DNA of 64,000 nt, from the NCBI GenBank assembly GCA_019894975.1, contig JAGXNO010000010.1, positions 18,704-82,703 of the forward strand, in the 5' to 3' direction. Made by a program: the position numbers and the translations under genes. The notes beneath the pieces were generated by a model. The model ran no database searches. It was not told the DNA's origin and was given only the letters and a program-made list of their open reading frames with translations. The DNA comes from Promethearchaeota archaeon (lineage in GTDB: Archaea > Asgardarchaeota > Lokiarchaeia > Sigyniarchaeales > SOKP01). Below are positions 5,113-53,756 of this stretch, in pieces. Numbering within the stretch: position 1 is the first letter of the stretch; each line of letters begins with the position of its first letter.

Positions 5113-5484
5113 TTACTTCTTAATCTCTTCTAACTTTTTAATTACATCATTTACCGCGCTATCATTTCCTGTTCCAACGTTTTCTATACTAATGGCGCTT
5201 GCAGATACATTGATTCTCGCAGTATTTCCTAGTTCTTTTTTAGTTGATAAGTATCCATAAGGAATTCCTTTTTCCTCGCATAGAAGTGGAATGTGGAATA
5301 AGATTTCCGGGGGAGTTACATCCTCAGCCATAATGATAAGTTTTGAAAGTTGTCTTTCAATTGATTTGGTAACTTCATTCATACCTTTCCGGATTTTAGA
5401 ATCTCGAGATTCAGCAATTTTGCTTAAGGCGTTCTTTAGCTGATTTTTTAATTGATCAGGGATTTGAAATTTTATATATGAAAT
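5113..5484 (-). CDS. rpl7ae: Ribosomal protein L7Ae (123 aa, apparent ATT start)
   Basis: KIRKGMNEVTKSIER..LIIMAEDVTPPEI..HIPLLCEEK; frame extends upstream of the ORF-track start to ATT-TCA-TAT (xSYIKFQIPDQL); in-frame TGA just upstream; SD-like GGAGATGA. Confidence 0.93.
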   Translation of the reverse strand: MSYIKFQIPDQLKNQLKNALSKIAESRDSKIRKGMNEVTKSIERQLSKLIIMAEDVTPPEILFHIPLLCEEKGIPYGYLSTKKELGNTARINVSASAISIENVGTGNDSAVNDVIKKLEEIKK

Positions 5485-5637
5485 TTTTAATCATCTCCTT
5501 CAAATATACTTTTAAATTAATATATTTTCATAATTCATCGATATTTGATATTATAATTAAGACACTATTAAAAATAAAATTTGGCATTTGAGATATAAAA
5601 CCTAAAAATTTTTTTACCATGCTTCTTTAGTTAAATT

Positions 5638-5838
5638 ATGATTATTCCGATCCGTTGCTTTAGTTGCGGGAAATTAATAGCACATACCTATAAACCTTAT
5701 TTAGAATATATCGAGAAAGGAGAAAGCTCAGAAAAAGCTTTTAAAGAGTTAGGACTTGAAAGGTGGTGCTGTAAAAGAATGATAGTTTCACACGTTGATC
5801 TTATCGACGAATTACTTAAATTTCCTCGATTACAATAA
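5638..5838 (+). CDS. rpoN: DNA-directed RNA polymerase subunit N (Rpo10)
   Basis: MIIPIRCFSCGK..LGLERWCCKRMIVSHVD. Confidence 0.97.
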   Translation: MIIPIRCFSCGKLIAHTYKPYLEYIEKGESSEKAFKELGLERWCCKRMIVSHVDLIDELLKFPRLQ

Positions 5839-5982
5839 GGAAATCTTATAATCTTTAGACTTCCTTCAAAGCATTTTCGTAGAAATACTTCTACGGTACG
5901 AATTGTTAGAGTAAAACTTTAAATTTATGCACATACAATTATATCAAAAAAAGATTGAAACATTCCAAATTGTATGCGAAAT

Positions 5983-6204
5983 TCAAAGTCTGTTCAGTTC
6001 TGCCCCAGCTATAACTTCAGTTCGCTTAAGTAGTAGATATTCCAAGCTTGTTCCTATTAAGAATAGAATAACCATAAAAAAAGATTTAAATATTGGATTT
6101 TCTGTAGGATCAGGTACTATGGGATTTCCTAGTACATTAACAGTAATTGAAGCAAAAATGAATAAAATAAGAGAGAAACTAATTAGATAATGACGCCACT
6201 TCAC
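5983..6204 (-). CDS. Small two-TM membrane protein, possibly a truncated remnant
   Basis: GTG start; signal/TM-like N-terminus, NPIVPDP, second hydrophobic helix. Confidence 0.45.
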   Translation of the reverse strand: MKWRHYLISFSLILFIFASITVNVLGNPIVPDPTENPIFKSFFMVILFLIGTSLEYLLLKRTEVIAGAELNRL

Positions 6205-6365
6205 ACCTTATAATCGATTTTAATAGCTTAAAATTCTTTGTGTTAGAAATAAATTTCATTTAGAAATTACATCACAAATAAAATGGATTATAATCAATCT
6301 ATTGAAGAGAAAGAAATATTAAATTAAACAATATTAATCCTATAAAATTAAAAATACAATAAAAC

Positions 6366-6548
6366 TCATTGCTTTCCGTAATGTGCAGTCCATCTTGTTT
6401 TTCTTGCTTTTTTGTTATAGTCCAGCATTGATTTTTTGCATTTATTGGTGCAAAAGTTAAGAATTGTCCCATCTCGTTTAATAAACATAAATCCGCGACC
6501 AATTGATATATCAAATCCGCAGAAACTGCATTTTTTAACCTTGACCAT
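6366..6548 (-). CDS. rpl24e: 50S ribosomal protein L24e
   Basis: CSFCG.DI..GRG.MFIKRDG.IL.FC..KC.K..RK.RWT. Confidence 0.96.
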   Translation of the reverse strand: MVKVKKCSFCGFDISIGRGFMFIKRDGTILNFCTNKCKKSMLDYNKKARKTRWTAHYGKQ

Positions 6549-6570
6549 TGTAATTCATCTCGTAAAATAG

Positions 6571-6975
6571 TTATTCTTTTTCCTTCTTGAAAAGTTCGGC
6601 CTCGCCATACTTAGTCACCATGAGATTTATTAATGTCATATCATAGGTCACTTCGTTGCCTCTTACCGTTTTTCTCCTTTTTTCTCCCACCCTTCGGGGC
6701 TTATAGCCTATCCCGCGTTTTGAGACAAGAATCTTTTTCTTGACGGGACCATGTACATCTTTTCTCATCGGAAATCCACTAGAATCGCTGCCACCCGTAA
6801 TACTAAACTCGTAATTTGGAAAGCCTATTAGCCCTCCATTGATGGTATCACCGATTTTCATCCCTTCAAATCTAAATTTTTTCTCATCAATCTCAATAAG
6901 TTTAGACAAACCCTTCCCAGGGCCTTCTTTTCCACCGCTAATATTTAGCTTATATGCAATTTTCTCAGAAGACAC
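6571..6975 (-). CDS. rps6e: 30S ribosomal protein S6e
   Basis: G.KIGD.I.G..IG...YEF.ITGGSD.SGFPMR.DV.G..GEKRRKTVRGN. Confidence 0.96.
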   Translation of the reverse strand: MSSEKIAYKLNISGGKEGPGKGLSKLIEIDEKKFRFEGMKIGDTINGGLIGFPNYEFSITGGSDSSGFPMRKDVHGPVKKKILVSKRGIGYKPRRVGEKRRKTVRGNEVTYDMTLINLMVTKYGEAELFKKEKE

Positions 6976-7023
6976 GATGCATCAATAATCTTGAAAACAA
7001 AGATTAAGTTCTAAAATGTATAT

Positions 7024-7044
7024 TTTCATAAAAATTTTATGAAA
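7024..7044. promoter_or_regulatory. Perfect 21-bp palindrome in a divergent promoter region, candidate operator
   Basis: TTTCATAAAA-A-TTTTATGAAA; half-site TTTTATGAAA recurs at 7081. Confidence 0.35.
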
Positions 7045-7148
7045 TTTGTAGGATTTAGATTTATTTTCTGAGGACTCACATTTTATGAAATTTATTTTAA
7101 TCATAACAACCTATAAAAATTATATCAGAATTTCATGTAACAGCTATT

Positions 7149-7979
7149 ATGCAATTATTCGAAGTAATTGAGATAACAGAATTTCCATTCATGGAAACTA
7201 AAGAAATTGTAGATGGAGTTGTAGTTAGTGATATTATTGGTGATCTCAATAATGGTAAGGTATTTTTACTTGTAGATCACGATACTAAAAGAATTTGGAC
7301 TTATAACTCTCCCATGAGTTCAATTAAAATCCAAATATATGGTGGCATTTTAGCGGGAATGTTTCGGCAACAATTAAAATTGTTTTATAGAGTGTATCCC
7401 TTGAATTTATATTCTCAGGATGATAAAGAATTTCAAGAATTAATGAATAAACAGTTAGGTCCTGGACGCGCGAAACCTATAGAAGAAAAAGAATTCTCAA
7501 AACCACTTCCAGATAAATACGTTATGGATTCTACAATACGAAGTCCTCAAATGAAGAAAGCAATTGATTATGTCAATCAATTTCCACAACCAGAAAATTT
7601 AAGTAGAAGATTTATGATTATAGGGGGAAATATTTTCGCAGATGAAGAAATTACAGAAGCCTTTTTGAAAGGAGAAATAAATGTAATTAAACCTGTGAAA
7701 TTAGGACGATTAAATAATGGTTTTACTTTCTTCAGAGATCACAATTATTCCACAAGATTAGTTATTAAAGATCGAAAAATACAAGGTATAGAATTATACA
7801 TTAAGGAAGAAGATAAATCTCCTCCCTTAGTACTAAAGATACCCGTAATTTATGAAGAAAAATTAAGCAAACCTGGTTCTATGGAAAAGTTAATTAAAGC
7901 CTTTCAAATTCCAAACCACTTGCCTGAAGATAATAACAAAGAAGCTTTCCCTAAAGATGATACTACTAATCAATCCTAA
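7149..7979 (+). CDS. Hypothetical protein with divergent N-terminal gelsolin-like domain
   Basis: GKVFLLVDHDTKRIWTYNSPMSS..Q..G..LA..FR...DDKEFQELM aligns by eye with the gelsolin domains at 1171 and 57256. Confidence 0.6.
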   Translation: MQLFEVIEITEFPFMETKEIVDGVVVSDIIGDLNNGKVFLLVDHDTKRIWTYNSPMSSIKIQIYGGILAGMFRQQLKLFYRVYPLNLYSQDDKEFQELMNKQLGPGRAKPIEEKEFSKPLPDKYVMDSTIRSPQMKKAIDYVNQFPQPENLSRRFMIIGGNIFADEEITEAFLKGEINVIKPVKLGRLNNGFTFFRDHNYSTRLVIKDRKIQGIELYIKEEDKSPPLVLKIPVIYEEKLSKPGSMEKLIKAFQIPNHLPEDNNKEAFPKDDTTNQS

Positions 7980-9291
7980 AACTTCAAAATCCTCTGAAGT
8001 TCAAAGACTTTATTTTCGAGAACCTAATTTAGGGTTGCTCTATTTAACAGCAATTTTAGACCAACACAATATCCCTATAGATATATTAGATCTCGAACAG
8101 TTCTTAGACTTGAGTGAGTTAGAATTAAAACACCTAATTGAAGAAAAATCTAACAGTTATAAGATCTTCGGTATTACTTCTTTAACAAATACCTTCCATT
8201 TAGCTCTTGATATTGCCAAAATAATAAAGGAACAAGACGAGGATAATATTATTGTAATGGGAGGCCCTCATGTCACCTTTATGTATAGAGAAATCTTAGA
8301 AAATGATATCAAAAATCAAAAATTGATTGACTTCATTTGTATTGGGGAAGCCGAAAACTCTTTTCTGCAGTTAGTTAATTTGTTAATCGGTTTAACACCA
8401 AATAATGTTTCCTTAGAAAATATCGAAAATGAATTATCATCAATTCCAGGGATTGCTTTTAACGACTTAAAGGGAAACCTAATAGTTACTCAAGCTGCTG
8501 TTGAAACTAATTTAGAACTTTTACCTTTACCTGCACGGTATAAACTTTCTCATGAATATTATTATTATACAATTGCTAATGTGATTGTTAATAGAGGATG
8601 TCCAAATCAATGTTCCTTCTGCTCAAGGCAAAAACTTTTCAAAAAAACTAAAATTAGAAGCACTACATCGATTTTGTCTGAAATTCGAGATATAATTTCT
8701 CTACAAACCTATAATTACATCAATTTTTACGATAACATTAATATAAATAATGAGTTTTTTAGAGATTTTTGCAATATTTTTATTAAAAACAAGTTAGAAA
8801 TTCCATGGGGATGTGAAATTCGTGTAGATGTAATCTCCGAGGAAGATGCTCGCCTCTTAAAAAAAGCGGGTTGTCGATTAATCGCAACGGGGGTTGAATC
8901 TGCAAGTATAGAAGTTTTACAAAAGAATTTTAAGTATCAAGATCCAGATCTGGTAAAGAATGGATTAATAAATTTGAAGAAGTTTAATATACCTATCCAA
9001 GCTTATTTTGTTTTAGGGTTACCTGGAGAAACTGAAGCTACGTTTAAACAAACTCTTGAATATATAGAGCAATTACCCTTAGAAAAGGGAGATAAAATAG
9101 ATTATTTCATAGCAACTCCCTATCCTGGTTCTCAATTATGGGATAAAAGAAAAAACTTTGAAATTAAAATTATTGAAAATGATTTCTCACGATTTGATTG
9201 TAATCATATAATCTTTGAAACACCAGATTTAAATTTAATAAAATTAGAAAAATTATATTCTCTTGCAAAAAAGATTGAGTTGGATTTTTGA
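7957..9291 (+). CDS. B12-binding radical SAM protein
   Basis: PNLGLLYL, MGGPHVT, GEAE, RGCPNQCSFC (CxxxCxxC), GVES, GLPGET, TPYPGS. Confidence 0.93.
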   Translation: MILLINPKTSKSSEVQRLYFREPNLGLLYLTAILDQHNIPIDILDLEQFLDLSELELKHLIEEKSNSYKIFGITSLTNTFHLALDIAKIIKEQDEDNIIVMGGPHVTFMYREILENDIKNQKLIDFICIGEAENSFLQLVNLLIGLTPNNVSLENIENELSSIPGIAFNDLKGNLIVTQAAVETNLELLPLPARYKLSHEYYYYTIANVIVNRGCPNQCSFCSRQKLFKKTKIRSTTSILSEIRDIISLQTYNYINFYDNININNEFFRDFCNIFIKNKLEIPWGCEIRVDVISEEDARLLKKAGCRLIATGVESASIEVLQKNFKYQDPDLVKNGLINLKKFNIPIQAYFVLGLPGETEATFKQTLEYIEQLPLEKGDKIDYFIATPYPGSQLWDKRKNFEIKIIENDFSRFDCNHIIFETPDLNLIKLEKLYSLAKKIELDF

Positions 9292-9632
9292 AAAGGTGCT
9301 TAATTATTCCTAGTATTTTCACTGAAAATGTTATTCAAATAATCAAAAGTATTCCCAAAGGAAGAGTTCTCACTTATGGTCGTATAGCTAAATTAGCAGG
9401 AAATCCAAGAGCTGCTAGGCAAGTTTCATGGACTCTTCATTCTTCTAGTAAGAAATATAATTTGCCATGGCATCGTGTAATAAGTTCAAACGGGACACTA
9501 GCAATGGTCTCAACGGAAGATAAACAATATCATAAAAAACTTCTAGAGCTTGAAGGTGTTAAGTTTACTGGAGAGTTTAAAATTGATCTGAAGAAATATC
9601 TCTGGGATATAGAATCATTTAACAATATTTAG
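9288..9632 (+). CDS. Alkyltransferase-like (ATL/MGMT family) DNA-binding protein
   Basis: IP.GRV.TYG.IA.LAG.PRAARQV..LPWHRV; Trp replaces the catalytic Cys of PCHR. Confidence 0.9.
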   Translation: MKRCLIIPSIFTENVIQIIKSIPKGRVLTYGRIAKLAGNPRAARQVSWTLHSSSKKYNLPWHRVISSNGTLAMVSTEDKQYHKKLLELEGVKFTGEFKIDLKKYLWDIESFNNI

Positions 9633-9642
9633 ATTGAAGGCT

Positions 9643-9942
9643 TTACAGCTCAGATCTATGAGGTAAACATGTTGGAAATGTCCTAAAAAATAATGAAAAT
9701 GCCGCATCTTCTTTTCCTTCTTTTATTAGATACTTAATGTTTTCGAGATTATCTTTCTGATTATTTATTATCTTAGGATTCATTCCAATCTTAACAAATC
9801 GTTTGAATCTTTCATCTAAAAGTAAAGATATTCTATTTTCATCATCTTCTTTATAATTCTTAAAGTCTTTTCTGCATGCTATTACAACTTTCCCATACTC
9901 TGGCTTTTTAGGGAATTTTCCTTCAGCAATCGTATATGTAAT
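9643..9942 (-). CDS. Hypothetical 99-aa protein missed by the ORF track (apparent ATT start)
   Basis: Open frame xTYTIAEGKFPKKPEYGKVVIACRKDF..FRTFPTCLPHRSEL*; SD GGGGTGA shortly upstream; fills the gap between neighbouring genes. Confidence 0.6.
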   Translation of the reverse strand: MTYTIAEGKFPKKPEYGKVVIACRKDFKNYKEDDENRISLLLDERFKRFVKIGMNPKIINNQKDNLENIKYLIKEGKEDAAFSLFFRTFPTCLPHRSEL

Positions 9943-10125
9943 TTTATTTTCACCCCTTCTATAAATAAAACTTAAATTTTTTTCTTTGATATAAATGTCA
10001 ATTTGTATATATATAATTTTTGATTCTTAATTCATCCTTAGAAAAGAATTTGAAAAATTCTATGAAGATCCTTTTATAATATATTTCATAATCTCTCTTA
10101 TTATTTCAAAAAAAGTAAAACTAAA

Positions 10126-11253
10126 ATGCCAGAATTTCAACCTTTTCTTATGGAGCGTTGGATGTCCAAATTTGAGCAAGAAGTTGAATTCAACTTATCT
10201 GAAAGCGGTGTACATCCAATATTGCTCAGCGAATTACTAAAAGATGATCCTGATAATATTAATCAATTACTTGCAACGGATCTTAACTATCCACATGTTG
10301 AGGGAATCCCTGAATTAAGAGAAAATATTGCTGCTCTCTATAATGGTGCTAGTATCAATAATATTTTAGTAACAACAGGAGCGATCGAAGCCAATTTTAA
10401 CGCAGTCCACACACTCCTTAGTAGAGGCGATGAAATCGTCATTATGCTCCCCAACTATATGCAAATATGGGGGATCGCTAAAAATTTTGAGTATAAAATA
10501 AAAACATTCCACTTACGTGAAGAAAACGGTTGGTCACCAGATATAGATGAGTTGAATGAAGTTGTATCTAAAAATACCAAGTTAATAGCTGTGTGCAATC
10601 CTAATAATCCTACAGGTTATATTCTTACTGAGAATGAAATGCAAGGAATTACGGACATAGCCGAACAGGCAGGAGCATGGGTTTTAGCTGATGAGGTATA
10701 TTCTGGAGCTGAACGACTAACTGATAATGAAACACCGTCTTTTTATGGACGATATGATAAAGTTATAGCAATTGGAAGTATGAGTAAAGCGTATGGGTTA
10801 CCAGGATTACGCATTGGGTGGGCAGTGGCTCCTGTTGATACTATAAATAAAATTTGGGCTCGACATGAATATACAACTATTAGTGCTACGATGCTCTCAA
10901 ATAAACTTGCAGCAATCGCACTCTCCCCTCAAGTCCGACCACGAATTATACAGCGCACTCGTAATTTTATTCGACAAGGATATCCGATCTTACAAAATTG
11001 GATGGAAAGCCATGAAAATACATTTACTGTTGTGCCCCCACAAGCAGCTGCGATTGCCTTTGTTCGATATAATTTAGATATCAACTCAACCGAATTTGCA
11101 GAACGATTGCGTAAAGAAAAGAGTGTTTTTCTTGTTCCTGGAGATCATTTTGGAATGGATAAATTCTTTCGGATTAGCTATGGATTACCCTCAGATTATC
11201 TTACCTCCGGACTAAATCGTATGCATGATTTAATTATGCAAATTAAGAGATAA
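10126..11253 (+). CDS. Class I/II PLP-dependent aminotransferase
   Basis: NLSESG, NPNNPTG, DEVY, SMSKAYGLPGLRIGW. Confidence 0.93.
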   Translation: MPEFQPFLMERWMSKFEQEVEFNLSESGVHPILLSELLKDDPDNINQLLATDLNYPHVEGIPELRENIAALYNGASINNILVTTGAIEANFNAVHTLLSRGDEIVIMLPNYMQIWGIAKNFEYKIKTFHLREENGWSPDIDELNEVVSKNTKLIAVCNPNNPTGYILTENEMQGITDIAEQAGAWVLADEVYSGAERLTDNETPSFYGRYDKVIAIGSMSKAYGLPGLRIGWAVAPVDTINKIWARHEYTTISATMLSNKLAAIALSPQVRPRIIQRTRNFIRQGYPILQNWMESHENTFTVVPPQAAAIAFVRYNLDINSTEFAERLRKEKSVFLVPGDHFGMDKFFRISYGLPSDYLTSGLNRMHDLIMQIKR

Positions 11254-11421
11254 ATTTTAGACTCCTTTTTATTATTTAAGAGATAAACCAATCAATAATT
11301 TTATTAATAGAAGATTAACTCTAGATAATTGTAGTGTTATCTCAAAAATACACTATTATAAATAAGTATTTTCCACAAAATTATAAAAAGAAAATTTAAA
11401 TAACTATAAAAGGAAAAATAT

Positions 11422-12717
11422 ATGCCAAAATCAGATTACTTCATCGGAGAAGCCTTAATTGGAGAAGGCGCAGACCTCGCTCACATAGATTTGATAATTG
11501 GTTCAAAAGATGGACCTGTAGGCATTTCTTTTGCTAATGCACTAAGCAACCCCTCAAAGGGTCATGGCGGTCTACTCGGAGCTATTCGCCCGAATTTAAT
11601 AACTCGCCCTTATACAATCATTATTCCCAAAGTCACAGTTGGCGATCTGGAAGATGCTAATAAGATCTTTGGTCCTGCCCAAGCAGCAGTTGCGAAAGGT
11701 ATTGCCGATGCCGTTGAAGAAGGCTTAATTCCTTTAAATAAAGTGGATGAATGGCTAATAATTGTTAGTGTGTTTATCCATCCTGCAGCTAAGGATTATC
11801 GAAAAATTTATCAGTATAATTATGGCGCAACAAAATTAGCTATTCAGAGAGCCATAAAATCATATCCTCCAATTGAAAAGATATTTTATGATAAAGATCG
11901 CGCTAAACACCCTGTTGCAGGGATACGTGTACCTAGACTCTGGCGTCCACCATACGTACAAGTAGCGTTAGACGCCCCGAATATAGAAAAGCAAATTAAA
12001 GTTGTAAAGCAACTACCAAAGAGTGATCGTATCATAATAGAAATCGGAACACCATTTCTTAAGAAATACGGGGTTGAATCGATTAAACAAATCCGAGAGG
12101 TTGCAAAAGAAAAATTCATCGTCGCTGATTTGAAAACATTGGATGTTGGTAAACTGGAAGTTGATTTTGCCTTTGATGCAACTGCTGACGCTGTTGTAGC
12201 AAGTGGTTTAGCTGCGACTGCCTCACTTGATAAGTTTATCCTAGAAGCACAACGAATGGGTATTCATGCTTTTGTTGATACAATGGAAGTTCAAAATCCT
12301 ATTGAGAAGTTAAGATCCCTAAAGCAAATTCCTGATGTCGTCATATTACACAGGGCAATAGATGTTGAGCAATCTGCAGCAGGAGATATATCGCATGACG
12401 CAGCTCAAAAAGCCCGTTGGGGTTTAGTTCCAAAAATAAAAGAATTATATGCTAGTCAAAAGAAAGCTTCAGGAAAAGATAGAGTACTGGTCGCTGTTGC
12501 TGGAGGTATTGAGCCAAGAACTGCAACATATGCTTTAGAACAAGGTGCCGATATATTAATTGTAGGGAGATTCATTGCTTCTGCTAAAGATGTGGAGTTT
12601 GCAATGAGAAGAATACTTAATGTACTACCTGGTTATCAAGATATCGACTTAAAGAGAATCCACTCTGAAGATGATGATAACTCTGTGGAAAAAAGTGGCG
12701 GTCCCAAATGGGATTAA
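11422..12717 (+). CDS. fae-hps: Bifunctional formaldehyde-activating enzyme / 3-hexulose-6-phosphate synthase
   Basis: Fae N-domain (GEALIGEG..AHIDLIIG..FGPAQAAVAK..YNYGATKLAI) plus HPS domain (QVALD, EIGTP, DLKTLDVG, VAGGI, VGR). Confidence 0.93.
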   Translation: MPKSDYFIGEALIGEGADLAHIDLIIGSKDGPVGISFANALSNPSKGHGGLLGAIRPNLITRPYTIIIPKVTVGDLEDANKIFGPAQAAVAKGIADAVEEGLIPLNKVDEWLIIVSVFIHPAAKDYRKIYQYNYGATKLAIQRAIKSYPPIEKIFYDKDRAKHPVAGIRVPRLWRPPYVQVALDAPNIEKQIKVVKQLPKSDRIIIEIGTPFLKKYGVESIKQIREVAKEKFIVADLKTLDVGKLEVDFAFDATADAVVASGLAATASLDKFILEAQRMGIHAFVDTMEVQNPIEKLRSLKQIPDVVILHRAIDVEQSAAGDISHDAAQKARWGLVPKIKELYASQKKASGKDRVLVAVAGGIEPRTATYALEQGADILIVGRFIASAKDVEFAMRRILNVLPGYQDIDLKRIHSEDDDNSVEKSGGPKWD

Positions 12718-12849
12718 CTATTGAAGAAATTTCATAAGCCTTAATTTTTTTTAGATCTCTGTTTTTCTTTTGTATATTAATTCCTAACATAATTTAAATT
12801 ACTTCTAGTATATTTTAGTATAGTACATTAATATATTAGAGATTGATTT

Positions 12850-13410: not shown

Positions 13411-13415
13411 GAGAA

Positions 13416-14669: not shown

Positions 14670-14938
14670 GATATATTTCTTTCAAAAGAATTTAATTTGA
14701 GACTTTTCTTAATGAAACTAGTATATCATAATCTAAATATTTACTATTTTCAAAATTAAAACTTCTAATAATGGAGAAAACAAAATGAAATTGGTTTTTT
14801 TTGAAAATTTTACATTATTGGAAGAGGTTTTATGACTTTTTTAATCCTATCTTTAATAAGATTTTTATCTATTGACAAATTAAATCAAACATTAAAGTTC
14901 TACTTTAATATATATGACAAATAAGGAGATTGTTAAAT

Positions 14939-15603: not shown

Positions 15604-15683
15604 ATACAAGGACACTTCTAAAATTATTTCTAATTTTTTTTTTATTCATTTAATTTACTAATTAAATATCTCTATAGAACATT

Positions 15684-19875: not shown

Positions 19876-19885
19876 AAGATTCCCT

Positions 19886-21160
19886 CTATAAAGATTCTGG
19901 TGAAGTAATATACCCTTTTATGGCAGAGGCGGCAGCGATTGCAGGATTTGACAAATATATTTCACTTTCTGGATGTCCCATCCTACCAGTAAAGTTCCTA
20001 TTTGTCGTCGATATCGCTTTTTCTCCAGCAGCTAGGATCCCCATGTGTCCTCCTAAACAAGGACCACAGGTAGGTGTTGAAAAAATTGCACCAGCGTCAA
20101 TAAATATCTCAATTAATCCTTCCTTTAATGCTTGAAGATATATATTCTGAGTGCCTGGGATGACAATACATCTAACTTTGTGATGAATTTTTTGATTTTT
20201 CAAAATATTAGCAGCAATTCTTAAATCCTCTATACGACCATTTGTACAAGAACCTATTATTGATTGATCTATCTCCACCTTCATATTATCTACTTCTGAA
20301 ATGGACTTGGAATTTTCAGGCAACGGAGGAAGTGCAACCTGGGGTTCTATATCTTTGCATTCAAATTCTATAATTTCACTATAACCAGCGTTTTTATCAC
20401 TCTCATAAATTTTATAATTAGTTTTTCCTACTTTTTCTAAGTAATCTCTCGTGATTTTATCAGGTGTTATAATTCCGTTCTTCGCTCCCGCTTCAATTGC
20501 CATATTACACATTGTGAGTCTATTATCCATAGATAGGTTTTTAATAACATCTCCAGTAAACTCCATTGCTTTATAAGTCGCCCCATCAACTCCTATTTTG
20601 CCAATTGTATATAAAATTAAATCCTTTCCCGAAACCCATTTGTTCAAACTCCCAGAATAAACAAATTTTATCGATTCAGGTATTTTAAACCAGCACTTTC
20701 CTAATGCCATTGCAACACCCAAATCTGTGGAACCTACTCCAGTTGAAAAAGCACCAAGAGCCCCATAAGTGCAAGTATGAGAATCTGCACCAACAAAAGC
20801 CTCTCCAGGTCCTACCAAACCTTGTTCAGGTATGAGACAATGTTCAATTCCACCACGACCTACTTCAAAGTAATTCGAGATGTCATATTTGTAAGCAAAC
20901 TCTCTAAGTGTTTCACATTGTTTTGCTGAGGCAATATCTTTATTTGGTGTAAAATGATCAGGAGTTAAAATTATCTTAGTTTTATCAAAGAGACTTTTAT
21001 TTGATCCTTCAATCACTTTTTCAAACACTTCAATTGCAATAGGGGCTGTAATATCGTTAGCTAAGCATTTATCTATCTTGGCTAATATAAAATCTCCAGC
21101 AGTAGCAGACTTGTTTTCACAATGATCTCTTAAAATTTTCTCGGTTATTGTTAAGGCTAT
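19886..21160 (-). CDS. leuC: 3-isopropylmalate dehydratase large subunit (424 aa, apparent ATA start)
   Basis: [42 protein letters not shown]; conserved N-terminus [10 protein letters not shown]..ANDITAP lies upstream of the ORF-track start and begins at ATA after SD GGGGAGA and an in-frame TGA. Confidence 0.93.
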
Positions 21161-46112: not shown

Positions 46113-46129
46113 TTTTAGAGGTAATTAAT

Positions 46130-46513
46130 ATGTCAGAATCAAAGATACCAGAAGGAAAAAAAGAGATTCGTTGTATTGTATGTCCAACAGGTTGTTTAGT
46201 TCATGTTGAGAATATAAATGGGGAGTTGGTCATTGAAGGTCATTCATGTCAAAGAGGTGAAGAATATGCAAAAGTAGAATTTATCGCACCAAAACGAATT
46301 CTAACAACAACGATTAGAGTAGAAAATGGATTTCTTCCCCTAATACCCGTCAGATCAGATACTCCCATTCCGAAGGAGAGACTCCAAGACACATTAAAGG
46401 AAATCGCAAAAATAAAGGTTAAAGCCCCAATAAAAATGGGAGATATTTTAATTAAACAGGTAATAGGATTGGATGTGAATATTATTGCGAGCAGGGACTT
46501 GATAAAAGCATAA
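46130..46513 (+). CDS. DUF1667-type CxxC protein, third gene of the GlpA-like operon
   Basis: CIVCPTGC..G..C.RG..YA..P.R.LTTT. Confidence 0.88.
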   Translation: MSESKIPEGKKEIRCIVCPTGCLVHVENINGELVIEGHSCQRGEEYAKVEFIAPKRILTTTIRVENGFLPLIPVRSDTPIPKERLQDTLKEIAKIKVKAPIKMGDILIKQVIGLDVNIIASRDLIKA

Positions 46514-46654
46514 ATAAAATCGTCTTTCTATTAAACCATAGATTTGGGTCTTAAATATCTAATCCATTTAGCAAATAATTAATTATAAATACATTTAGAA
46601 ATAATTCTATAATGAATATAGATTCATTATTACCAAAGTTACAGAATGATTTAA

Positions 46655-48025
46655 ATGAAAAAAGAAAGTATTTTAAGAGATTTAGAAGATATTGTCGGGA
46701 AAGACTTTGTTTCAAATAAGTCAGAAGATCTTTTCATATATTCACAAGATCCTGGGGCTTCTGAACCTCGACCTGTCGATTTCGTGGTGATGCCTAAGAC
46801 TGTTGAGGAAATACAAGAAATCGTAAAGCTAGCAAATAAAGAGGTAATCCCTCTAATCCCTATGGGAGGCGGACTTACTTTAAGTGGATTGATCCTTCCT
46901 GTTCATAAAGGTATCGTTATGGATATGAAAAGAATGGATAAGATTATAGAGATTAATAGCTTGGGACGATATGCAGTTTTAGAAGCGGGAGTAACAACAG
47001 GATCATTAGTATCATACTTGAATGAACATCATCCTACTTTGCAAGCTCCGATTCCGGATGCACCAACATCTGCAACAATTGCGGGGAACGTATTAATTCA
47101 CGGATCAGGTTCACTCTCTCAGAAGTATGGACATCATGCAAGCATGATTAATGGTTTGGAAGTTGTGTTACCAACGGGAGAAATAACCAAATTTGGTTCT
47201 TATGCAATTTCGGAATATTGGTTTTCAAAAGCCCCCATTCCAGATCTAATTGGTTTGTTCACGAGCAGTTTTGGCACTATGGGTATTATTACAAAAGTAT
47301 CCATAAAACTATATCCGAAACCAAAAGAACGAGACATAATTTTTGGATTATCTCAGGATTTTGATGGGCTCCCAAATCTCATGTCTAAAATAACCTTTAC
47401 AGAATTCGCAGAAGATGTTATGATAGGCCATTCCCATACTCCCCCTAATATGAAACAATTTTGTGCTGTTATGGTATATATCACCGGAAACTCAAAAGAA
47501 GAAATGGACTTAAAAAGATCTACTATAGAAACAATATTTAAAGAAAATAACCTACAAGTAGCTCCAATAATGGGTCAAACAAGGACCTATTTGATGGATC
47601 ATCCCCAATATACGGCAGCATTTGCTTCAGACTGGAGAAAGGGAGGTGGATTCGAATATGTTGGGTCATTTATTCCGTTAGAAAAAATTCCTGAAGCAAT
47701 CGAAAAAGGAGTTGTAATTTCAGAAAAATATGGGTTGGTCCCATCATTATTGTGCAGAATAATAGGAAGTGGTCATGCGGTTATGTTTTCTGTCACTTTC
47801 CCGTTTAATCGAGCAGATCCCGCTGACCGGAAAAATGCTAGAGAGGGATTAGAAGAAACAAATAAAATGGTGTTGGAAATAGGAGGGGTTCCTTGGAAAA
47901 CAGAATTAACAGGTCAAAAACTCACTATGGAAAAAGCAGATCCACAATATAAGAAATTATTTAAACGGGTTCGAAATCTGTTAGATCCAAATGGTATAAT
48001 GAACCCTGGGAATTGGGAGGTGTGA
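46655..48025 (+). CDS. FAD-binding oxidoreductase (GlcD-like)
   Basis: P.GGGLTLSG, EAGV, SATIAGN, GLEVVLPTG, GTMGIITK, DPNGIMNPG. Confidence 0.9.
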   Translation: MKKESILRDLEDIVGKDFVSNKSEDLFIYSQDPGASEPRPVDFVVMPKTVEEIQEIVKLANKEVIPLIPMGGGLTLSGLILPVHKGIVMDMKRMDKIIEINSLGRYAVLEAGVTTGSLVSYLNEHHPTLQAPIPDAPTSATIAGNVLIHGSGSLSQKYGHHASMINGLEVVLPTGEITKFGSYAISEYWFSKAPIPDLIGLFTSSFGTMGIITKVSIKLYPKPKERDIIFGLSQDFDGLPNLMSKITFTEFAEDVMIGHSHTPPNMKQFCAVMVYITGNSKEEMDLKRSTIETIFKENNLQVAPIMGQTRTYLMDHPQYTAAFASDWRKGGGFEYVGSFIPLEKIPEAIEKGVVISEKYGLVPSLLCRIIGSGHAVMFSVTFPFNRADPADRKNAREGLEETNKMVLEIGGVPWKTELTGQKLTMEKADPQYKKLFKRVRNLLDPNGIMNPGNWEV

Positions 48026-48028
48026 TAA

Positions 48029-49240
48029 ATGCTATCAAGTCAAAAAAGTAGAGAAGAGTTGGGACTAAAATATTATGAACAGATGATACACAGATGTTTT
48101 AGATGTGGTTACTGCAAGTTTACAGGAGATTCTATAGATATTAATTGTCCAAGTTATAAAAAGTACAAATTTGAATCTTTTAGTGCGGGTGGACGAATGT
48201 GGTTAATTTACGGATTAATGTCTAATGAACTCGAATGGAGTGATCATATGAGTAAAATCCTATATGCTTGCACAACATGTGGAAACTGTGGTGAGAACTG
48301 TAAACTCCTGAGGCGGAAATTTGGATCGGAATTTGCGGTAGATATTATTGAATTAGCACGGGCTGAAGCATTTAAAAATGGATTTTGTTCGGAAAAAGCT
48401 ATTAATTTTGGAAATCATACTGCCAAAGAGCATAATCCATACTTAGAAAAACATGAAAATAGATTATCATGGCTTCCTGATGATTTTAAGAATCCCGAAG
48501 ATCCAGAAATTGGATATTTTGTAGGTTGTACGTCATCTTACCGTGAAAAAGAATTAGCCAGAAATAACTTTGAAGTTCTCAAGAAAATAGGTGTCAAATT
48601 TGCCATCTTTCAGGAGGAATGGTGTTGTGGTTCACCGCTCCTTAGGACAGGTCAAAGGGAAACCGCAATAATCCAAGCAAAACATAATATTGACTTGTTT
48701 AAAAATAAAAATATCAAAACAATTGTTACTTCCTGTGCGGGTTGTTATCGAACCATCAAGGAAGATTACTCAAGAATATTCTACGATGGAATTTCTGAAG
48801 ATAAATTACCATTTGAAGTTCTTCATATTTCAGAATATATCAAAAGGCTACTGGATGAAAACAAAATTGAATTTAAAAAGAATTTAAATGGAAAAAGAAA
48901 AGTTACTTATCATGATCCATGCCATCTCGGACGTCATGCGGGGGTATATAATGAGCCAAGAGAAATTATTAAAAAAATTCCCGGAATAGAGTTAGTAGAA
49001 ATGCGCAAAATTAAAGGAGATGCAACATGTTGCGGTGCTGGAGGAGGTGTTAAAGCTGGATATTCTGAATGGGCTTTAGAAATGGCAACCAGTCGCATTG
49101 AAGAAGCATTAGAAACAGGAGCAGAAATATTAATAACCACTTGCCCGTTCTGTGAGCATAATTTCGCAGATGCTATAAAAGAGCATAATTATAATATCCA
49201 AATCATGGATTTAGTTAATTTATTAAAAGAATTATTATAG
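48029..49240 (+). CDS. Fe-S oxidoreductase, GlcF/HdrD-like (4Fe-4S + two CCG domains)
   Basis: CFRCGYC, CTTCGNC..C, FVGC, CCG, CAGC, YHDPCHLGR, CCGAGGG, CPFC. Confidence 0.92.
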   Translation: MLSSQKSREELGLKYYEQMIHRCFRCGYCKFTGDSIDINCPSYKKYKFESFSAGGRMWLIYGLMSNELEWSDHMSKILYACTTCGNCGENCKLLRRKFGSEFAVDIIELARAEAFKNGFCSEKAINFGNHTAKEHNPYLEKHENRLSWLPDDFKNPEDPEIGYFVGCTSSYREKELARNNFEVLKKIGVKFAIFQEEWCCGSPLLRTGQRETAIIQAKHNIDLFKNKNIKTIVTSCAGCYRTIKEDYSRIFYDGISEDKLPFEVLHISEYIKRLLDENKIEFKKNLNGKRKVTYHDPCHLGRHAGVYNEPREIIKKIPGIELVEMRKIKGDATCCGAGGGVKAGYSEWALEMATSRIEEALETGAEILITTCPFCEHNFADAIKEHNYNIQIMDLVNLLKELL

Positions 49241-49295
49241 AAATTGAAATGAATTACGAATTAAAAAACATGAAAATTGAAAAAGGAGGAAAAAA

Positions 49296-50327
49296 ATGTT
49301 TTTAGAAGAAAAATGTAAGAGGGATACATGTGGAATAGCTTGTTTAACAAAATGTTATTACATGGACTATTCAGAGCAAAAAGCAAAAGAAGAATTTGAA
49401 AAATTAATTAGAGGTGAACCGTCTACTGTAACATCGGAATGCGTAACGTGCTGTGCGTGCACAATGAATTGCCCATATGGCGCGGATCCCTTTGATCTTA
49501 TAAGTAGGAGAATGGAAGAAACAGGGACTTTTATTGGGGGTGAACGTGCGGCCAACCAAATGAAAGGGGCTAATCTTCTCCCATCATCAATAACAAAGGG
49601 GGACCCTGATAAACCTATAATGAATCTTTGTACAGTGAATATGATTGCAGGAGCGATTGAAGGGCAATTATTTGAAGGATTAACCCTTCTTCAAGGAGGA
49701 GATTATTTCTGTCAAATTGGCGGATATCATGCAGGTATCCCAAGTATGGTCAGAGATAACGCCCAAAAATTCATCAATAACCTTGCAAAGGTCGTTCCAG
49801 ATGATAATTACCTAATTTGCTTCCATGACGATTGCTTCATGATGCTGGACCATTATGCAAAAGATTTTGGGATGGAAGTTCCCTTTAAATATATCCATAT
49901 TATTGAATATCTTCGAGATTATGTGAAGAAAAATCTCGATAAAATAAAGAAACTAAACATCAAAATCGCATACCAGCAACCCTGTGCCTCCCGTATAGGA
50001 TGGGATGCTTTTAGGAAAAAAGATAAAGCACTCGATGAGTTATTTGAATTATTAGGTGTTGAACGAGTCGATAGAAAATATGACCGTGAAGGAGCACTCT
50101 GTTGTACTGCAGTTATTTCTCCTAATGATAAATATTGGAAAATGAACATTGCTGATGCTAAAAATGCAGGAGTAGAAGCAATGATTTTTCTCTGTCCAAT
50201 CTGTTGTTTATACTTAAGGAGCAAAGCTCAAGCAGAAGGTATGGAACCTTACTTTTTAAGCAATCTAGTAAGGGAAGCATTGGGTGAAAATCTCCCAAAA
50301 GGGAAAGCGGGAAAAATATTTGAGTAA
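49296..50327 (+). CDS. (Fe-S)-binding protein with CCG-like domain
   Basis: C..C...CL.KC, CVTCCAC..CP, FC, HDDC, YQQPC..R, CC, CPIC. Confidence 0.85.
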   Translation: MFLEEKCKRDTCGIACLTKCYYMDYSEQKAKEEFEKLIRGEPSTVTSECVTCCACTMNCPYGADPFDLISRRMEETGTFIGGERAANQMKGANLLPSSITKGDPDKPIMNLCTVNMIAGAIEGQLFEGLTLLQGGDYFCQIGGYHAGIPSMVRDNAQKFINNLAKVVPDDNYLICFHDDCFMMLDHYAKDFGMEVPFKYIHIIEYLRDYVKKNLDKIKKLNIKIAYQQPCASRIGWDAFRKKDKALDELFELLGVERVDRKYDREGALCCTAVISPNDKYWKMNIADAKNAGVEAMIFLCPICCLYLRSKAQAEGMEPYFLSNLVREALGENLPKGKAGKIFE

Positions 50328-50362
50328 AATAAGATAAAAATAAAATATTATTTTTTAATTTT

Positions 50363-51373
50363 TCAATTAATTCTTTCTCCTAAAGCCATTCTTGCTAAAT
50401 CAGTTAATAAATATGGTTTTAATCCTTTTTGTTCCACTTTAGAGCCTAGAGTTTCCTTACACATTGGGCATACAAATGCACAAACTTCAGCTCCATATTC
50501 AATCATATCGTTAACATTTTTTTCTTGAGTAGGCTTTACCAATTCTCTTTTACCTAGCATCGCAAAGGGAGCCGCACAACATATTGCATTTTCCCTGTCA
50601 TATGTTCGTTTAACTCGTTCGACACCTATTAAGTCACAAATGTTATCAACATATTTTTCAATTTCAGGTAAAAATCGATTGGAACAGCTTCGCTGGTACG
50701 CAATTTTCATATTAAGTTTTTTTATCTCTGATTTATGATCATTTAGATATTCATACACATACTCAAAAATATGAATTGGTTTGAAAGGCACATCTATATT
50801 ATTTCTTTGGCAATACGATGTCCACATGCCATAACATTCATCATGCCAACAGATAAGTTCCTTGATTCCATGCTTTTGGATACTTTCCATTATTATAGGA
50901 ATTCTTTCTTTGATTAATGAGTCCCGCGCCATATGGTGAAACATTAAATTACAGAAAAAATCAGTTCCGCTTATATATTGCAGATCCTCAAACATTTGAC
51001 CTTTCATATTCTCAGGATTAATCTTTGAAAATGTACATCTATTAAAGACTGGTTTATTAGAGTCAATTTCCTTAATTCTTACTTCATCATGGGGAGCAAA
51101 TTGTTTAATTGCTCCTTGGAGCATAGCAGGATTAATATTAAAAGTATTATATTTTTCTTGTAATTCAGTTTTTAAATCAAATGGATGTGAATCATATGGA
51201 CAATATTCATCACAGGCGAAACAGGTAACGCAATCTTTTAAAATGAAAGAATCTTCACCCTTAATCATTTTGTCCATTTCTTGTTTTGCTGTTTCTCTAT
51301 CTACTTCCATCCATTGACATCGAGTTAAACAATCAATATTTTCACATTTAGAACAATTAGATTTATCAAACAT
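50363..51373 (-). CDS. (Fe-S)-binding protein with CCG-like domain, paralog of 49296-50327
   Basis: CSKC..CLTRC, CVTCFAC..CP, FC, HDEC, YQRSC..R, CC, CPMC. Confidence 0.85.
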   Translation of the reverse strand: MFDKSNCSKCENIDCLTRCQWMEVDRETAKQEMDKMIKGEDSFILKDCVTCFACDEYCPYDSHPFDLKTELQEKYNTFNINPAMLQGAIKQFAPHDEVRIKEIDSNKPVFNRCTFSKINPENMKGQMFEDLQYISGTDFFCNLMFHHMARDSLIKERIPIIMESIQKHGIKELICWHDECYGMWTSYCQRNNIDVPFKPIHIFEYVYEYLNDHKSEIKKLNMKIAYQRSCSNRFLPEIEKYVDNICDLIGVERVKRTYDRENAICCAAPFAMLGKRELVKPTQEKNVNDMIEYGAEVCAFVCPMCKETLGSKVEQKGLKPYLLTDLARMALGERIN

Positions 51374-51524
51374 AATTTTTTCAATTTTATGATTTTAGTA
51401 GTTTAAGTGTCAAATATTAAGAAGATATTTTTAATTTTGTGAAAATATAGTTAATAAACCAATATTTTTAGATTCCTTTTTTCATTTCTAGATGTAAACA
51501 CTTCTTAATTAAACTATCAGGTAG

Positions 51525-51983
51525 ATTCAAGTTTCTGAACTAGACCAAATCCATGAGGTTCATAGGAATTTATTTATTGGAGCTTACTGGCCCAGATTAA
51601 ATTTTACAATGTTTAAAGACATTGGAATAACCGCTATCGTAAATTTGATGGAGGAAAATCTATACAATCCTACTAATCTAGGTTTTCATTATCTACATAG
51701 GGGTTTTCCTGATGATACCTATCCTCCTCACGAATATATTGAAGTAATTTTAAATTTTATTGATCTCCATCTAAAAGAAAATGGGAAAGTTTTGGTTCAT
51801 TGTGCAATGGGGATTTCAAGGAGTGGAGGAATAACTATAGCCTGGTTATTAAAGGAGAATTCAGATTGGAGTTGGCAGGATGCTCTTTCCTATGTAAAGA
51901 AATCTAAATTTATCGGTCCTGCTGTAGAAATAAAAAATTCTGTTCTTGATTACTTTGAGAAAATTGAAAACAAGAAGAGATAA
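51525..51983 (+). CDS. Dual-specificity protein phosphatase (non-canonical start ATT 51525 or GTT 51531)
   Basis: VHCAMGISRS (HCX5R); N-terminal strand IHEVHRNLFIGA lies upstream of the first ATG; in-frame TAG at 51522. Confidence 0.88.
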   Translation: MQVSELDQIHEVHRNLFIGAYWPRLNFTMFKDIGITAIVNLMEENLYNPTNLGFHYLHRGFPDDTYPPHEYIEVILNFIDLHLKENGKVLVHCAMGISRSGGITIAWLLKENSDWSWQDALSYVKKSKFIGPAVEIKNSVLDYFEKIENKKR

Positions 51984-52122
51984 CACTAATATAAGTACCT
52001 TGTGAGTAAAACTCTTTTAATTAGTGAGTTTGATTGTTTATCATTTACTTAAATATATAAAACAAGACTAAGATTAGTTAATAAAAAATCAGTATTATTA
52101 AAAAATTAGAGGAGATCTATTT

Positions 52123-52482
52123 TTGTCTGAATTTGAACAGAAAGTATTAAAATCACTTGAAGAAATAAATAGTAAACTTGATTCCTTATTAAAAAGTGGA
52201 GCCTCAGCATCCACACCGACTCCAACAGCTGCCCCCCCAGCACAAGCTCCTGCTACAGCTCCTGAAATAAGTCGCCCAAAACCTTCTGAACTTGTAGAAA
52301 AGCAAAAGGAGGAAGAAAGAATGGAAGAAAAACCTCCTGTTGAAGGCAGGAGAATATGCCCCGAATGCTCCGGAACCACTTTCGCTACACACGAAGATAA
52401 GCAACAGGTGCTTCACCAAATGGGTGGCGTAAAGATCTATGCTAAAAAATATGTATGTAAGAGCTGTGGGTACGAATACTAA
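52123..52482 (+). CDS. Small protein: coiled coil, Pro/Ala/Thr linker, C-terminal Zn ribbon
   Basis: SD GAGGAGA + TTG; EGRRICPEC..EDK..IYAKKYVCKSCG. Confidence 0.85.
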   Translation: MSEFEQKVLKSLEEINSKLDSLLKSGASASTPTPTAAPPAQAPATAPEISRPKPSELVEKQKEEERMEEKPPVEGRRICPECSGTTFATHEDKQQVLHQMGGVKIYAKKYVCKSCGYEY

Positions 52483-52670
52483 GCTATCGCTGCCAGTATC
52501 TTTCAATTCATCAAACCGAAATAAAAAATCCATTTCAATAATTTTTTATTCCCTTTTTATTAATATGTAGACGATTTTATCTGTATATACATTTTCAGTT
52601 AGGTTTTTATCTTGAATATTCTTAACATTTTTAATAAAAACTTAGAAAAGACGTAATGGTGTACTTTTAG

Positions 52671-53756
52671 ATTCCTCAATGGCGAGTAAAAAAAGGGATT
52701 CAGTATGTAAAGAACTTTTTTCTAAATAACTTTACAAGCATAAAAGTTCCCTATTCTGCCCAGATAGAATTAACACTACGTTGCAATGGAACGTGCTCAT
52801 TTTGTTCTATACATTCTTTACCAAAATCTATTAAAGGAGAAGATATGAGCACTAAACAAATAAAACAATTAATAGATCAAATTGCTGATTTAGGAGTGTT
52901 AGCCTTGTCCTTTACAGGAGGTGAACCTACTCTTAGAAGAGATCTTCCGGAATTAATATATCATACAGGAGTAGTTCATGGTTTTATGAATGGAATTGCT
53001 ACTAATGGTTATTTATTGCCAAAACTGTTTAAAGAACATAAATTAGAGGGCTTGGATTATATCTTAATATCTTTAGATTATCCTAACGCAGAATTACATA
53101 ATAAAATGAGGGGTTTCAATGTTTTTGACAAAGTAATTGAGTCCATTAAATTAGCTAATAGAAATGAAATAAAACCAATAATAAGTACTGTTGTAATGAA
53201 CGATAATTTACCATTTTTAGAAGATATGTGTGAATTAGCAGAAAATTTAAATTGTTCTATAGAAATGTATCCTTGTGAAGATATTATAAGGAATTACTCT
53301 GAAAACAGTTACCATATTGATAAAATTAATGATTTAATCCCAGATATCTCCAGCTGGGCCAACATAATGAGGTCATTAAGAAGAAATTATAAAAATATTC
53401 TGACTGATCCGGTTTCAATTGAAGTAGTCGAGAAGGGAGGATTTGGGGGATATCCTTCATATCATCAAAAAACCCTACGATGTCATGTCGCGGAAGCTTA
53501 TATATTCATAAGTCATGACGGATTTGTTCATTATCCCTGTAAAATTCACCCTTTAATTAGTTTTGATGCACTTAAATATTCCTTACATAATATCTACTAT
53601 TCAGAAGAAGTTAGGGAAATCATGAAACAGCATGATAATTATGATTTCTGTGATAATTGTCGTTTAGGGTGTGCTATAGCATCGTCAATTCCAACTCGAT
53701 GGAAGACCCTTTATTCTAAATATGTAAAGGGGTTTCTAGATGGAAATTTAAGATGA
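52671..53756 (+). CDS. Radical SAM protein with SPASM/twitch-like C-terminus (361 aa, apparent ATT start)
   Basis: ELTLRCNGTCSFC (CxxxCxxC) lies upstream of the ORF-track ATG; FTGGEP.LR.D, TNG, ISLD; C-terminal C..G..PC..C..C..C. Confidence 0.9.
   Translation: MPQWRVKKGIQYVKNFFLNNFTSIKVPYSAQIELTLRCNGTCSFCSIHSLPKSIKGEDMSTKQIKQLIDQIADLGVLALSFTGGEPTLRRDLPELIYHTGVVHGFMNGIATNGYLLPKLFKEHKLEGLDYILISLDYPNAELHNKMRGFNVFDKVIESIKLANRNEIKPIISTVVMNDNLPFLEDMCELAENLNCSIEMYPCEDIIRNYSENSYHIDKINDLIPDISSWANIMRSLRRNYKNILTDPVSIEVVEKGGFGGYPSYHQKTLRCHVAEAYIFISHDGFVHYPCKIHPLISFDALKYSLHNIYYSEEVREIMKQHDNYDFCDNCRLGCAIASSIPTRWKTLYSKYVKGFLDGNLR

Follow-up and report, generated by a model that had tools for sequence, protein, structure and literature searches.

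In Escherichia coli, infC (encoding IF3) and pcnB have AUU as the start codon. In eukaryotes, eIF1 autoregulates its own synthesis via a poor initiation context, and near-cognate codons such as CUG are read by Met-tRNAi. The AUA and AUU starts of mitochondria rely on a modified anticodon together with a changed code, in which AUA encodes Met. In Sulfolobus, Pyrococcus and Haloferax, translation starts at AUG, GUG or UUG, and aIF1 discriminates against non-canonical codons (PMC6237735; PMC7531240).

Comparative sequence analysis indicated that ATT, ATA or ATC (ATH) just past a ribosome-binding site is very probably the translation start for a few percent of genes, estimated at about 2-6%, in a Loki-type Asgard archaeon and its genus. 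A literature search found no paper reporting routine AUU/AUA/AUC starts in Asgard archaea. As in E. coli infC and pcnB, the AUU is found behind a Shine-Dalgarno (SD) sequence, and the gene of a factor that proofreads the start uses AUU itself, an arrangement that would give negative feedback. However, the factor here is aIF1, the homologue of eIF1, and not IF3; the feedback is a prediction, the estimate covers a few percent of genes instead of a couple of genes, and the ATT is conserved through a whole archaeal genus. With eukaryotic eIF1 the system shares a homologous factor whose own mRNA carries a weak initiation signal, but eukaryotes use scanning and Kozak context, while here the codon itself would be weak and the SD would do the placement. 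Model archaea have the same aIF1, aIF1A, aIF2, SD-assisted positioning and initiator tRNA features, whereas routine AUU/AUA/AUC starts are not described there. The mitochondrial starts and the alternative starts of NCBI table 11 likewise accept ATH as initiator; unlike in mitochondria, the elongation code here appears standard and the initiator tRNA gene carries a CAU anticodon.

In the window, which is the whole stretch of 64,000 nucleotides analyzed, six genes were assigned an ATT, ATA or ATC start rather than ATG, GTG or TTG, very probably correctly as judged from the alignments:

5113 to 5484, minus strand: L7Ae gene (Pfam Ribosomal_L7Ae), putative start ATT 5484-5482, in-frame TGA 5493-5491
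9306 to 9632, plus strand: alkyltransferase-like (ATL) gene (Pfam DNA_binding_1, PWHRV motif), putative start ATT 9306
9643 to 9942, minus strand: conserved 99-aa ORF (hidden ORF), no assigned function, putative start ATT 9942
19886 to 21160, minus strand: aconitase-family large subunit gene (leuC/hacA-like), putative start ATA 21160
51525 to 51983, plus strand: dual-specificity phosphatase gene (Pfam DSPc), candidate start ATT 51525 or GTT 51531
52671 to 53756, plus strand: radical SAM/SPASM gene, putative start ATT 52671 with GGTG about 9 nt upstream

These six non-NTG start sites had been proposed in a preliminary description. They were present in the sequence as described, each bounded by a nearby in-frame stop, and all six held up in orthologue alignments, where tabulation of the codon at the homologous start gave ATG, GTG or ATH at exactly the proposed codons. 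Related genomes carried ATG at these sites to different degrees: in all 8 orthologues of the leuC-like gene (from three families), in 38 of 80 species representatives for L7Ae, and in none of the 18 congeners for the radical SAM gene, all of which had ATT. TAA, TAG and TGA were all found ahead of ATH codons, sometimes doubled, and the sequence 5' of these stops was not conserved. A variant genetic code or stop-codon readthrough was rejected since no single stop type consistently interrupts conserved coding sequence. An ORF at 6299-6610 (minus strand) was also rejected as a seventh ATT case; this stretch contains stops in relatives, and the true gene is L24e (6366-6548, ATG), which occupies a different frame.

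The L7Ae start was ATT or ATA in all 19 genus genomes searched, and the alignment of the 80 species representatives contained ATT in 36 and ATA in six besides the ATG sequences. Two elements precede the gene:

5490 to 5498, minus strand: extended SD GGAGATGAT, 5 nt ahead of the L7Ae ATT, matching the anti-SD complement at 8 of 9 positions
5495 to 5541, minus strand: k-turn-like 5'-UTR hairpin adjoining the SD, with flanks GATGA...ATGA and TGAAGGAG

The SD was longer in the ATT clade, while the ATG clade displayed a shorter GGAGAA. The hairpin was conserved across 23 aligned species, with compensatory changes in four of the seven stem pairs and flanks GATGA/TGAAGG; in sequence it resembles the published autoregulatory leader of L7Ae (PMC5539422; PMC6298567), of which it is a putative counterpart. 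An out-of-frame ATG or GTG is located 10 nt before the ATT, inside the SD, and L7Ae could be made by frameshifting from this canonical codon. However, no conserved slippery site was detected, and the bases between the ATG and the ATT varied over 42 species (TTAAAA, TTGAAA, AATAAG, TTTATA); a +1 frameshift was rejected on this basis.

The radical SAM gene offers a similar choice, as an in-frame GTG or ATG lies three to five codons ahead of the ATT with a stop in between, from which the protein could be reached by stop readthrough. The start 'ATT CCT' was invariant in the 18 genus genomes searched, always behind an in-frame TAA or TAG and sometimes behind two consecutive stops. Readthrough of a TAG from an upstream ATG was rejected, because the congeners carry stops of different types at different positions, in several genomes two of them (TAA TAA; TAG ATA TAA). 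The upstream GTG merely belongs to the GGTG SD. We therefore regard recoding from an upstream canonical start, in either gene, as very improbable. The Pfam Radical_SAM domain begins at residue 32 and its CxxxCxxC motif occupies residues 38-45, while the first NTG is found only at codon 58 and the first ATG is residue 59. In the outgroup, an ATG aligned with codon 4 and not with the ATT.

Of the 11 genomes compared for the ATL start, all from within the genus, 10 had ATT or ATC. TAA was located directly upstream of the start codon in one of these genomes, and four others had a TGA at a distance of two or three codons upstream. The SD AGGTG (9294-9298) was in the optimal register. Orthologues of the hidden ORF were found in 10 congeners, an eleventh giving a weak partial match; their start codons were ATC (2), GTG (3) and ATG (5), with TAA directly upstream in most. 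The hidden ORF matched no Pfam family and is preceded by the SD GGGGTGA (9956-9950).

For the phosphatase, the preliminary description had left the choice between ATT 51525 and GTT 51531. In the alignment, the position homologous to the start of the relatives was 51531 and not 51525, although either codon may be the start in this genome. Codon 51531 aligned with ATG in two genomes, ATT in five (TAA immediately precedes this ATT in two) and GTT in one other. The SD AGGT (51519-51522) was likewise in register for 51531 and not for 51525. GTT is two steps from ATG, and a near-cognate model does not explain it well. The leuC-like gene displayed a weaker SD (GGGGAG). Its Pfam Aconitase domain was placed at residue 12 and was also given as beginning six codons past the ATA; no NTG occurs before codon 49.

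The proteins might instead begin at the first downstream ATG, GTG or TTG, leaving the conserved upstream stretch untranslated, or the genes might be decaying. A downstream start matches the output of standard gene callers, and weakened alleles could account for the leuC-like ATA (the three congeners with the gene have ATG) and the phosphatase GTT, at which most congeners have another codon. However, up to 80 species conserve the protein sequence of the upstream stretches, and downstream starts would remove indispensable parts: the radical SAM protein would lose its Fe-S cysteines, L7Ae its N-terminal strand and aIF1 almost its entire sequence. L7Ae and aIF1 are moreover essential single-copy genes. 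Either reading seems very unlikely.

Sequencing or assembly errors have even less probability. The genome is a MAG of 175 contigs with an estimated contamination of 8.6%, but the same ATH codons recurred in many independently assembled genomes. The preliminary description had considered isolated sequencing errors less likely, and this was borne out: the ATT of the L7Ae, radical SAM, ATL and aIF1 genes was kept in independent MAGs of 10-42 species. The leuC-like ATA was identical in contigs from another study's run and apparently also in a relative of about 87% identity. For five of the six genes the error reading is, on these alignments, refuted by conservation.

The anti-SD was taken from the 16S 3' end of this genome, which reads ...GGATCACCTCCT. 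The SD-like motifs noted earlier upstream of the candidates all matched this anti-SD, in the register of confident ATG starts. The match was a 5-mer in L7Ae, ATL and the hidden ORF, and a 4-mer in the radical SAM gene and at phosphatase codon 51531. The SD register peaked at the aligned spacing of 943 confident ATG starts (peak d = 15). Genome-wide, for codons within six codons of an upstream stop and followed by at least seven NTG-free codons, a well-spaced SD was present at 75 of 1203 ATH codons and 150 of 5881 other codons in two genus genomes, an enrichment of 2.5 times (Fisher p = 1e-9) in a gene set that includes some spurious ORFs. A preliminary version of the test, with any 5-mer and a wide window, had a background too high for use. 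TTG had been described as a frequent start; of 3211 ORFs, 655 had TTG as their first NTG, with SD support like that of ATG (12.1% vs 12.5%).

A coding-like leader without NTG, 20 or more codons long, was present in 3.6-4.0% of ORFs in two genus genomes and in 1.0% in a sister-family genome represented by 800 kb of matching GC (p = 2e-4). Leader and SD rates were alike in the second genus genome, while leaders were about four times rarer in the sister family. Leaders of at least 40 codons numbered 87 against about 10 expected (3211 ORFs), and P-loops or Rossmann motifs were present in many NTG-free leaders. In a high-GC outgroup genome (G027), none of 40 ATH codons had an SD; its leader lengths were not comparable because of its composition. 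The SD enrichment at ATH, the excess of leaders over the sister family and the flips of the start codon within the genus support the earlier proposal of an SD-dependent trait of the lineage, for which relaxed start selection may be the mechanism. ATH starts were also observed outside the genus, at a lower rate.

We consider it likely that SD-directed near-cognate AUH initiation, tolerated by the machinery of the genus, explains these starts. The AUU, AUA or AUC would lie about 5-9 nt past an SD, whose pairing with the 16S 3' end would anchor the small subunit at that codon. A mismatch at the third position would then be tolerated by the ordinary initiator Met-tRNA (CAU), and the protein would begin with Met. 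The tolerance may be a property of the machinery and not of individual mRNAs, sufficient for a few percent of genes. A given start could drift among ATG, GTG, ATT and ATC between species.

Decoding as Met by the initiator tRNA is the step on which another reading differs: ATH initiation would be real but would not involve the standard Met-tRNAi mismatch, the first residue being supplied by, for example, an elongator Ile-tRNA, an initiator with a modified anticodon or a route independent of aIF2. All three Ile codons (ATT, ATC and ATA) were enriched behind SDs and GTT was not, as this reading would have it, and no tRNA-Met was found assembled in this MAG, in which aragorn and Rfam gave 16 and 29 tRNAs. 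On the other hand, CTG and ACG behind an SD appeared mildly enriched as well (2/20 and 3/24), and the same positions become ATG or GTG in congeners, fitting one shared initiator. The initiator tRNA gene of the genus, read in three congeners, is also of the classical archaeal type, with anticodon CAU and three G-C pairs in a GGG/CCC stem. The exact pattern GGGCTNATNACCC was absent in three genus genomes because an intron follows position 37/38 of the initiator tRNA. A dedicated initiator tRNA whose anticodon differs from CAU was ruled out, as the congener gene carries CAU. Initiation without the Met-tRNAi mismatch is thus improbable, and near-cognate initiation by the ordinary initiator is preferred.

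The aIF1 gene started with ATT in all 16 genus genomes with a readable start region, and with TTG, ATA or ATG in other genera; its first NTG is found only at codon 88 of 109. In Sulfolobus solfataricus, aIF1 discriminates against non-canonical starts (PMC6237735). The basic loop of the factor displayed only K to R/T changes and no obvious loss-of-function change. The ATT start of the aIF1 gene may provide negative feedback like that of bacterial infC, which could determine how stringent initiation is in general. A further, tentative possibility is that stringency is lowered cell-wide in the genus and that the AUU/AUA/AUC genes form a set co-tuned by the level of aIF1, which would be sensed by aIF1 (and L7Ae) through their own AUU starts. 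Archaea closely related to the ancestor of eukaryotes would then have a counterpart of both infC control in bacteria and eIF1 autoregulation in eukaryotes. The combination of AUH initiation, eukaryote-type factors (aIF1, aIF1A, aIF2) and an AUU-started aIF1 would offer a natural system to study start-codon stringency and the origin of eIF1-type autoregulation.

Asgard archaea are studied mainly via predicted proteomes. If a few percent of their genes do use ATH starts, standard callers would truncate or miss genes, and domain inventories, searches for eukaryotic signature proteins and structure predictions would be biased as a result. Truncation by gene callers, anticipated in the preliminary description, was indeed found: the public entry for the radical SAM protein of the window is a 303-aa model without the CxxxCxxC motif, so that the stored enzyme has no Fe-S cysteines, and many relatives are stored likewise. 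Some ATT starts are already called by public annotation, which gives L7Ae a length of 123 aa and one radical SAM protein a length of 361 aa.

The Promethearchaeota archaeon MAG (3.9 Mb, 175 contigs, ~31% GC), whose contig C11 carries the window, has a 16S rRNA 3' end of ...GGATCACCTCCT, from which the Shine-Dalgarno (SD) consensus AGGAGGTGATCC was derived. Coding regions of the window were mapped as stop-to-stop ORFs, and codons free of NTG (ATG, GTG or TTG) were counted at their 5' ends. Five coding regions displayed long NTG-free 5' stretches.

Coding regions of the window with long NTG-free 5' stretches
5113-5490 (-), L7Ae, 36 NTG-free codons
9643-10026 (-), hidden ORF, 81 NTG-free codons
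19886-21175 (-), Aconitase-family (leuC-like), 49 NTG-free codons
51525-51983 (+), phosphatase, 28 NTG-free codons
52671-53756 (+), radical SAM, 58 NTG-free codons

According to Pfam, the Aconitase domain begins at residue 12 of the leuC-like frame and the Radical_SAM domain at residue 32 of the radical-SAM frame, where CxxxCxxC occupies residues 38-45 and the first Met codon is residue 59. Because these domains begin, and the CxxxCxxC lies, before the first NTG, downstream canonical starts cannot yield functional proteins. The ORF at 6299-6610 (-), the longest at its site, was rejected as a false ORF, being the shadow of ribosomal protein L24e (MVKVKKCSFCG...), which is encoded in another frame at 6366-6548 (-) and starts at ATG 6548. 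L24e adjoins S6e (6571-6975, GTG start) and S28e (4843-5094).

Orthologous DNA was aligned codon by codon using 30 relatives, 18 from the same Lokiarchaeial genus and 12 from three other families of the order. The preliminary description had noted recurrent ATT/ATA starts in five genes and possibly a sixth (ATL), and had proposed SD-driven start selection. Orthologous codons and in-register SDs confirmed the observation and make such starts very probable. L7Ae has ATT (17) or ATA (2) as its probable start in 19/19 genomes of the genus, with GGAGATGA(T) located 5-6 nt before the start and an in-frame TGA within that motif, while other families have ATG at the same position. Among 80 species representatives, all of them Promethearchaeota/Lokiarchaeota-type Asgard archaea, the L7Ae start was ATT in 36, ATA in six and ATG in 38; the SD of the ATT/ATA clade, GGAGATGAT, is longer than the GGAGAA of the ATG clade. 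The radical SAM gene begins with 'ATT CCT' in 18/18 genus genomes, with GGTG ~9 nt upstream of the ATT. Codon 4 is ATG in eight genus genomes and TGG in the MAG; a distant homologue has its ATG aligned to this codon. Stop readthrough was unsupported, the stops before this ATT being TAA or TAG and doubled in some genomes; frameshifting was not supported by the orthologue comparison.

The hidden ORF encodes a 99-aa protein conserved in the genus. Its codon 9942 is ATT in the MAG and ATC (2), GTG (3) or ATG (5) in congeners, with GGTGA 6-7 nt before the start and TAA usually directly upstream. The alkyltransferase-like (ATL) gene, carrying the PWHRV motif, has ATT or ATC at codon 9306 in 10/11 genomes, preceded directly by TAA in one genome and by TGA 2-3 codons upstream in several. 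TTG 9288 was rejected as its start, being not conserved and upstream of the SD. The leuC-like ATA 21160 aligned with ATG in 8/8 fetched orthologues, three of them from the genus. Contigs assembled from another study's run match the MAG exactly across this ATA, and for a ~87% identical relative no difference was listed at the three bases of the codon. With the ATT/ATA or ATT/ATC of L7Ae, the radical SAM gene and ATL also kept in congeners, isolated sequencing errors are, as had been argued, less likely.

For the phosphatase, two start codons had been proposed, and the one homologous to the start in relatives is 51531 and not ATT 51525. Codon 51531 is ATG in two genomes, ATT in five (TAA directly before it in two) and GTT in the MAG and one other genome. 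The AGGT motif has the right spacing to serve 51531 and is out of register for ATT 51525. GTT occupied start-homologous positions three times, in the phosphatase of the MAG (51531), the phosphatase of a congener, G009 (locus L078), and the ATL gene of another congener, G012 (L246); in each case an ATT precedes the GTT by two codons. Either GTT itself serves as a start codon, or initiation moves to the ATT despite its poor spacing, or the alleles in question are weakened ones.

Upstream of L7Ae, a conserved element (5495-5541, -) reads CGATGA-(A/T)TTATGA-hairpin-TTTGAAGGAG and is common to the ATT and ATG clades. Its hairpin stem covaries from TATAT/ATATA to TTCGAA/TTCGAA (L080-L159, ~232-300) and its 3' flank extends into the SD. 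The element looks like the k-turn leader that mediates translational self-repression by L7Ae (PMC5539422, PMC6298567).

The whole MAG was analyzed using 3211 stop-to-stop ORFs that look coding and span 100 codons or more, a set containing some false ORFs. NTG-free leaders of at least 40 and at least 60 codons numbered 87 and 50, while a simple composition model expects ~10 and <1; many contain P-loops or Rossmann motifs. At 943 ATG starts called with confidence, SD matches peaked at a single aligned register (d = 13-18). In-frame codons lying no more than six codons from the upstream stop, with seven or more NTG-free codons after them, were then scored for a 5-mer SD in register, which was found for ATT in 31/461, ATC in 10/128, ATA in 20/409 and other codons in 139/5121. 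Dozens of the SD-bearing ATTs resemble textbook starts, such as GGTGA-N6-ATT followed by a GTPase P-loop. From the excess of SDs and of long leaders, ATH (ATT, ATA or ATC) starts are estimated at roughly 2-6% of genes, a rough figure. TTG starts proved frequent, as previously noted: TTG is the first NTG in ~20% of coding-like ORFs, and SD support was 12.1% for TTG, 12.5% for ATG and much lower, 5.1%, for GTG.

The same pipeline was run on sampled regions of three further genomes, comparing NTG-free leaders that look coding and reach 20 codons or more.

Leaders and SD support in four genomes
MAG, whole genome: leaders 3.6%; ATH with SD 61/998; other codons with SD 129/4877
Complete genome, same genus, 800 kb: leaders 4.0%; ATH with SD 14/205; other codons with SD 21/1004
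Complete genome, sister family, same GC, 800 kb: leaders 1.0%; ATH with SD 9/146; other codons with SD 22/912
High-GC genome, third family, 400 kb: leaders not comparable; ATH with SD 0/40; other codons with SD 27/626

The leader fraction differed between sister family and genus (Fisher p = 2e-4), and the sister-family ATH count gave p = 0.03. The sister-family genome G026 (L174-L193, L252-L271) has a few convincing SD+ATT/ATC candidates, such as GGTGA-N6-ATT ahead of a MazF/PemK-like ORF. The suggested relaxed, SD-driven initiation is supported, as a probable mechanism, by SD excess, leader excess and conservation in the genus; as a lineage trait, it is strongest in the genus but not confined to it.

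ARAGORN and Rfam searches recovered ~29 recognisable tRNA genes in the MAG, with no tRNA-Met assembled. Three congeners (L164, L165, L166) carry a canonical initiator tRNA gene, with A1, a GGG/CCC anticodon stem and CAU as anticodon; an intron follows position 37/38. A changed anticodon is therefore not the cause. The sister-family initiator gene (L160, G026), missed by ARAGORN, has its intron in the D-loop region. Both programs also detected a tRNA-Sec (anticodon TCA) in the MAG at C44:65491-65583 (-), in agreement with known selenocysteine use in Lokiarchaeota (PMC8211752).

Initiation factor aIF1 (SUI1) was compared across loci L214-L239.
MAG contig C104, 8818-9139 (+), aIF1, ATT start

All 16 genus genomes with a readable start region (16/16) have ATT, preceded by AGGTTGTGAT and TGA TAA, and the sole NTG among the 109 codons is codon 88. 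Elsewhere in the order the start is TTG, ATG or, in one genus, ATA. aIF1 is a start-codon fidelity factor; if its own mRNA starts at AUU, feedback of the infC type would result. The aIF1 of S. solfataricus favours discrimination against non-canonical starts (PMC6237735); the basic loop differs only slightly between genus and outgroups.

Full-text literature searches turned up no description of AUU/AUA/AUC starts for Asgard archaea. In bacteria, AUU is known to act as a near-cognate start codon behind an SD, whereas the scale, the conservation across an Asgard genus and the presence on L7Ae and aIF1 appear to be new here and give the trait practical and evolutionary interest. Truncation by gene callers, as predicted, affects the radical-SAM protein, stored publicly as a 303-aa truncation like many relatives, yet the L7Ae of the window is already stored from ATT (123 aa), and one NCBI radical-SAM model takes the ATT as start (361 aa).
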